DNA of 64,000 bases from NCBI RefSeq assembly GCF_030013595.1, contig NZ_CP122768.1, one strand, 5' to 3'. The notes below the pieces were generated by a model. The model worked only from the letters and a program-made list of their open reading frames with translations. It had not been told where the DNA came from and searched no databases. Below are positions 16,044 through 16,118 of this stretch, piece after piece. Both the position numbers and the translations under genes were made by a program. This DNA comes from Escherichia coli. GTDB taxonomy: Bacteria; Pseudomonadota; Gammaproteobacteria; Enterobacterales; Enterobacteriaceae. The first letter of the stretch is position 1. Every line of letters starts with the position of its first letter.

Positions 16044-16053
16044 AATATTAACC

Positions 16054-16076
16054 ACTTTAGTTACAACATCCTTATT
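16054..16076 (-). promoter_or_regulatory. replication terminator site TerB (Tus binding site) within the tus promoter
   Basis: Minus strand reads AATAAGGATGTTGTAACTAAAGT, containing the Ter core GTTGTAACTA, 11 bp upstream of the tus start codon. Confidence 0.75.
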
Positions 16077-16118
16077 TTATAGCACAGTGGTGGTGACTTG
16101 ACCACCGTGCGCGTAATG

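Follow-up and report, generated by a model that had tools for sequence, protein, structure and literature searches.

The Ter site

The DNA analysed here, a stretch of 64,000 nucleotides from an Escherichia coli chromosome (the window), carries on its minus strand, at 16054-16076, a 23-bp Tus-binding terminator, AATAAGGATGTTGTAACTAAAGT (position 1 at 16076, position 23 at 16054), which, judging from its sequence and setting, is almost certainly the native chromosomal TerB of this strain and the ortholog of K-12 TerB. TerB itself is already known, and the single base by which this copy departs from the K-12 reference falls at a position already described as variable. When the K-12 TerB 23-mer was searched for with up to three mismatches allowed, the window gave this one match, with one mismatch, and 100 dinucleotide-preserving shuffles gave none. 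The window site and K-12 TerB are equal at 22 of 23 positions, and the sole difference is T to G at position 7 (16070, minus strand), a common natural allele.

Alignment of the rstB-tus intergenic region to NC_000913.3 showed that the G at position 6 and the 12-bp core A8-A19 are unchanged with respect to K-12. From the 18 bases upstream of the site, through the site and into tus, position 7 is the only difference from K-12; a C/G difference lies just beyond those 18 bases, at 16089. The strict core, ATGTTGTAACTA, occupies 16058-16069 on the minus strand, is identical to K-12 at 12 of 12 positions and includes GTTGTAACTA (Ter positions 10-19, at 16067-16058) with no mismatch; read on the minus strand, 15990-16140 contains GTGCTATAAAATAAGGATGTTGTAACTAAAGTGGTTAATATTATGGCGCGTTAC. 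The G·C pair of position 6 is at 16071, where the plus-strand C is the base that locks in the Tus pocket and marks the non-permissive face. Both the definition of the 12-bp core and the use of G·C(6) to recognise Ter sites were taken from PMC8707476.

The site ends close to the gene of its binding protein. A 10-nt spacer, GGTTAATATT, separates T23 (16054) from the ATG of tus (16043), which puts T23 at -11 and the end of the GTTGTAACTA core at -15 relative to that ATG; by alignment the spacing is the same in K-12, for which the end of the 23-mer is likewise given as 11 bp before the tus ATG (PMC8707476). The preliminary description had claimed a Ter site within 16044-16085 and 11 bp from the tus start, without naming a strand; both the site and the distance are real, with the site and tus on the minus strand, and the alignment with K-12 TerB that it proposed as a check leaves no mismatch in the core that it had named, GTTGTAAC. 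Its identification of the site as TerB holds as regards the orthologous position and the unchanged core, but not as full identity with K-12, the G at position 7 (G7) lying outside the named core. The locus thus combines the features of a Ter site (G·C at position 6, the 12-bp core, an intact-looking cognate Tus gene and fork-trap orientation) with those particular to TerB, namely the -11 position before the tus ATG and the synteny rstA-rstB-TerB-tus-fumC-fumA.

Tus and the terminus locus

The tus coding sequence (309 aa plus stop) extends over 15114-16043 on the minus strand. In the list of open reading frames it begins at a GTG at 16055 (313 aa), which overextends into TerB; we set the start at the ATG because of the homology to K-12 Tus and to the crystallised protein. 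The predicted product is identical to K-12 Tus at 301 of 309 residues (97%), matches Pfam PF05472 with E = 1.5e-136 and aligns over its full length with PDB entries 1ECR, 2EWJ, 2I05 and 2I06. Eight substitutions separate it from K-12 Tus (I22A, H27E, H116R, K119Q, H126R, E206A, A221T and N224D), while in the same alignment E49, I79, F140, H144, G149 and R198 are as in K-12. Residues 49, 79, 140, 144, 149 and 198 reportedly serve the cytosine pocket and the pausing that precedes the lock (Mulcair et al. 2006; Elshenawy et al. 2015). PMC8707476, too, refers to R198. The cognate Tus is apparently intact.

The order of genes around the site, fumA(+), fumC(+), tus(-), rstB(-), rstA(-), ydgC(+), folM(-), ydgI(-), is that of the 1.68-Mb region of K-12, reversed. 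rstB (16119-17420, minus strand) lies upstream of tus and is co-directional with it; fumC (13714-15117, plus strand) is convergent with tus, and the 3' ends of these two genes overlap by 4 bp (15114-15117), the same as in K-12. Distances to TerC and dif were read from strain HCP5S3_I2, a close relative, and not from the window's own genome: a 1.1-kb tus query from the window matches it at 100%, while over 7.1 kb the two differ by 3 substitutions and 1 indel (99.94% identity), and they differ again further along the window, so that HCP5S3_I2 itself is rejected as the source of the window. In HCP5S3_I2, whose record starts at dnaA, TerB is at 2.536 of 5.27 Mb, TerC (GGATGTTGTAACTA) is at 2,650,461-2,650,474 on the strand that it shares with TerB, which stands 115 kb before it, and a perfect dif is at 2,667,684-2,667,711 (2.668 Mb), 132 kb past TerB.

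Within the 64-kb window dif was not found, nor did a scan with the extended Ter consensus, GNRNGTTGTAACKA, find TerC or any second Ter site in it. Both lie outside the window as expected from the K-12 distances: TerB and TerC are ~75 kb apart by K-12 coordinates, and TerB and dif are ~93 kb apart on the K-12 map. Scanned over its full length for Rfam families and tRNAs, the window gave no matches. The claim that this DNA comes from the terminus region is upheld by the K-12 1.68-Mb gene order and by the near mid-chromosome position of TerB in HCP5S3_I2, with TerC and dif beyond it.

Two further observations concern HCP5S3_I2. rstB is intact in the window (a 433-aa ORF) and is annotated in HCP5S3_I2 as a frameshifted pseudogene, with one C missing at the position that corresponds to 17250; this is explained either by a true difference between the strains or by a sequencing error in the HCP5S3_I2 assembly. 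About 200 bp from dif of HCP5S3_I2 (33684-33711 of the sequence L011, outside the window) there is a region of site-specific integrase genes (33908-35312), with one intact and one partial copy, followed by hypothetical and defence-like genes (an ABC-three-component system and an AAA ATPase), which suggests an island integrated beside the dimer-resolution site.

Polarity and fork arrest

GC skew is positive over nearly all of the window, its cumulative value passing from 0.06 to about 0.40, so that the plus strand is taken as leading and the fork from oriC as normally moving from low to high coordinates. The permissive AAAGT end of the site, at 16054, would be met first by that fork, and the C6 end (16071-16076) faces high coordinates. 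The order outward from the origin in HCP5S3_I2 is dnaA(1), TerB(-), TerC(-), dif. The local fork-arrest polarity, which had been said to follow from the site, is thereby defined. The face that blocks forks, on the C6 side, looks towards high window coordinates; forks running from low to high would meet the permissive face, and those running the opposite way would be stopped.

The events at such a site can be set out from what is known of K-12. Tus, made from the adjoining downstream gene, would bind the 23-bp TerB as a monomer. A fork that reached TerB in the high-to-low direction would be one that had already gone past dif and TerC; its DnaB would unwind the AATAAG end and open the base pair of position 6 (16071), and the freed C6 would enter the cytosine pocket of Tus, giving a locked complex at which the fork would stop. 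The origin-side fork, moving from low to high, would instead meet the AAAGT end and displace Tus. The lock, in which the base flips into the Tus pocket, is described in PMC8707476 and PMC4499146, and it is for K-12 TerB that Tus binding and polar arrest have been demonstrated in the same literature (PMC8707476, PMC4499146).

Comparison with known sites places the window copy among them. (i) With K-12 TerB (NC_000913.3, upstream of tus b1610) it shares locus, flanks, orientation to tus and the 10-nt spacer; it differs in G7, in two further substitutions in the hairpin region upstream and in the eight amino-acid substitutions of Tus. (ii) K-12 TerC, read from the genome as ATATAGGATGTTGTAACTAATAT, has the same positions 6-19 (GGATGTTGTAACTA) and the same fork-trap orientation as the window TerB; unlike it, TerC is intergenic between uxaB and yneE, departs from it in the outer positions (1-5 and 20-23) and has no association with a promoter. 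Of all terminators TerC is said to be the one used most often, and to be of high affinity and lock-forming (PMC8707476). (iii) Ter1 of the type I traps of Edwardsiella, Dickeya, Proteus and Yersinia likewise lies in a short stretch 5' of tus, has C6 and the 12-bp core, and has the orientation to tus seen in the window TerB; however, it is the innermost site and the primary barrier, whereas E. coli TerB is outside TerC (PMC8707476). As TerC is inside TerB in E. coli, TerB would act as a back-up, which is its canonical role (PMC8707476, PMC13220808).

TerB and the tus promoter

Three recent papers (PMC8347550, PMC8707476 and PMC12809603), all citing Roecklein et al. 1991/1992, place terB inside the tus promoter or overlapping it and state that Tus controls its own expression. 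In the window a scan of 15900-16300 with the consensus sigma-70 model returned no promoter. By eye, a putative extended -10, TGcTATAAA, can be recognised on the minus strand at 16076-16084, its last base being TerB position 1; it is absent from the scan output because the scanner does not accept a hexamer with a final A. A putative -35, TGGTCA, lies 17 nt upstream of it (16099-16104, minus strand). The arrangement TGGTCA-N17-TGcTATAAA is invariant in eight E. coli alleles; in EC42405 the sequence of the spacer is largely replaced and its length of 17 nt is kept. The exact -35 and -10 elements of tus are thus putative and inferred by eye, and transcription of tus would start ~7 nt past the -10, within the Tus footprint at about Ter positions 7-9. 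The earlier statement that TerB is embedded in the tus promoter is therefore backed by three papers and a conserved motif, but not by the consensus scan.

With TerB overlying the promoter and start region, bound Tus would lower tus transcription, the negative autoregulation of the literature. Since read-through from rstB reaches the non-permissive face, bound Tus should probably stop this read-through as well; according to PMC2095818, which cites Mohanty 1996 and Guajardo & Sousa 1999, Tus halts RNA polymerase from the side from which it halts forks. Immediately past the stop codon of rstB there is a hairpin (16082-16110, minus strand; 10-bp stem, 9-nt loop, no U-tract; dG -16.1 kcal/mol, z = -2.36) that shares bases with the spacer and the putative -35 of tus. 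Its stem is perfect in the window, bulged in K-12 and without its original right arm, which has been replaced, in EC42405. As an intrinsic terminator of rstB it is a weak candidate, given its z value, the missing U-tract and the replaced arm in that one strain. A terminator-like match at 16186-16174, inside rstB, the only one in the scan of 15900-16300, is at chance level.

The same arrangement lends itself to a different weighting, in which TerB serves mainly as the operator through which Tus controls its own gene and stops forks only rarely, as a secondary back-up, since TerC catches nearly all forks. We consider this rather unlikely, although several facts speak for it: TerC lies between TerB and dif both in K-12 and in HCP5S3_I2, TerB is probably used only after a fork has passed an unbound TerC (PMC8707476), a tus-adjacent Ter is a conserved partner across Enterobacterales, and the 55 bp round TerB are much better conserved than the tus coding sequence. 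Yet the G at position 6 and the fork-trap orientation are kept in every allele examined, which an operator role alone would not need; significant fork pausing at TerB in vivo is reported (Duggin & Bell 2009, as cited in PMC8707476); and in the type I traps it is the tus-adjacent Ter that forms the primary barrier. Operator and barrier, moreover, differ in emphasis and are not exclusive alternatives, and a native TerB retaining its place in the fork trap is the preferred reading.

TerB alleles and tus polymorphism

Of 5426 complete E. coli genomes, 5423 have the tus region, and the counts for the region of TerB and tus run from 5386 to 5423. With a 55-bp query over the site, the exact allele of the window was present in 794 of the 5426 genomes (for example PBP8 and APEC 16-1068) and the exact K-12 55-mer in 2330 (~43%). 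A third allele, of the type seen in O157:H7 and E. coli B (A2T plus G7; ATTAAGGATG...), was present in 1237, and a fourth is set apart by a 1-bp insertion among the outer positions of the site (AATAAAGTATG...); the insertion-type allele ATAAAGTATG... was found in EE72d, NMBU-W10C18 and EC42405. All four TerB alleles keep the G at position 6 and the core, and the 12-bp core is invariant in the 8 alleles aligned and the 9 tabulated. In other E. coli lineages TerB shares locus and core with the window copy and differs from it only at positions 1-5 and 7.

tus itself is much more variable. Its coding sequence is 94.5% identical to K-12 at the nucleotide level, with 51 differences, 39 of them at third codon positions, and the 8 amino-acid changes given above; the flanking genes are 98.1% (rstB), 97.9% (fumC) and 97.9% (ydgC) identical. 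When a 923-bp tus query was used, 4209 of 5423 genomes (78%) matched at 90-95% identity; with a 923-bp rstB query no genome fell below 95%, and with fumC one did. Among nine strains pairwise divergence averages 3.3% in tus, against 1.85% in rstB and 2.1% in fumC, and the class of tus represented by the window and EE72d is the most distant in that matrix, at 4-6% from the class of K-12, O157 and B. Overall tus diverges 2-2.5 times as much as its immediate neighbours, and this excess may reflect either an imported allele, acquired by recombination, or a locally raised substitution rate. Despite it, conservation holds in TerB and at the very start of tus, and the Ter core never varies, which fits the remark in PMC8707476 that Ter sequences are highly conserved across species while Tus identity is only moderate.

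Three lines of evidence lead us to judge G7 not meaningful: (i) TerC carries it; (ii) position 7 has been reported to vary among E. coli phylogroups and to be without base-specific Tus contacts, the conserved Ter core being given as positions 6 and 8-18 (Goodall et al., PMC8347550); and (iii) G7 is common in the genomes, occurring in at least 2031 of 5426 (at least 37%), O157:H7 and E. coli B among them. On these grounds the change from T7 to G is read as a neutral, widespread allele, with the tolerance at position 7 taken from the literature.

A functional role for the variation appears improbable, although a mechanism can be proposed for it: the T7, G7, A2T plus G7 and insertion alleles may be non-neutral, setting lineage-specific Tus levels or lock kinetics and co-evolving with the polymorphic tus. 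Position 7 is approximately at the predicted tus start and the outer positions fall in the -10 and discriminator, so that the alleles might tune either property, and the 1-bp insertion allele shifts the -10 relative to the Ter core.

It is also very improbable that G7 marks a weakened or degenerate TerB, with Tus binding or the lock impaired. Position 7 is the sole departure from the K-12 reference TerB and sits next to C6, between the locking base and the core, which speaks for the idea. TerC of K-12, described as the most used terminator, however, matches the window site throughout positions 6-19, G7 included, and TerG has G7 as well. TerC and TerG both belong to the six high-affinity sites (TerA-E and G), lock-forming and bound in vivo (PMC8707476), and the frequency of G7 alleles in the complete genomes, with O157:H7 and E. 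coli B included, also speaks against impairment.

That the site could be a chance Ter-like motif without function is practically out of the question: the bare 8-mer GTTGTAAC does occur three times in the window against 1.67 expected, which is not significant by itself, but the TerB copy is the only one that fits the extended Ter consensus (with 0 mismatches), and the reading is ruled out by the shuffles, in which no 23-mer came even within three mismatches, by the K-12 alignment, with its orthologous position and identical spacing to tus, and by conservation in ~5400 genomes. The two other GTTGTAAC copies, at 40453 and 42059 on the plus strand, fail that consensus even with one mismatch allowed and are attributed to chance.

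The right-hand part of the window

Away from the terminator, the right-hand part of the window is strain-specific. A gene for a ynfE-like molybdopterin subunit of the DMSO/selenate-reductase family is split into a C-terminal part (39785-40951, minus strand) and an N-terminal part (50195-51652, minus strand) by an insert of ~9.2 kb, which holds an IS66-family element and an antirepressor-like ORF with KilA-N/ANT domains (46974-47714). The IS66-family element is present twice, at 43626-46328 and 57802-60504; the copies are 2703 bp each, 100% identical, inverted and 11.5 kb apart, are annotated as ISCro1-like in related genomes, and bracket the N-terminal ynfE part, speG and rspAB. Such an inverted pair offers a substrate for inversions close to the terminus. 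Just past the second copy, an 823-aa ORF (61360-63831, minus strand) with a C-terminal Rv2179c-like 3'-5' exoribonuclease domain probably lies in prophage or island DNA. The whole arrangement between 38 and 62 kb was found in no complete E. coli genome of the collection, the best match having 88% coverage at 97.8% identity.

Concluding remarks

TerB anchors this stretch to the replication terminus of the E. coli chromosome and fixes the normal direction of fork movement as from low to high window coordinates; beyond annotation its significance is small. As read from the sequence, the Tus-Ter back-up barrier and the autoregulatory arrangement that goes with it appear intact in this strain, and, as the frequency of G7 recalls, the consensus TerB of the species is not the K-12 sequence.
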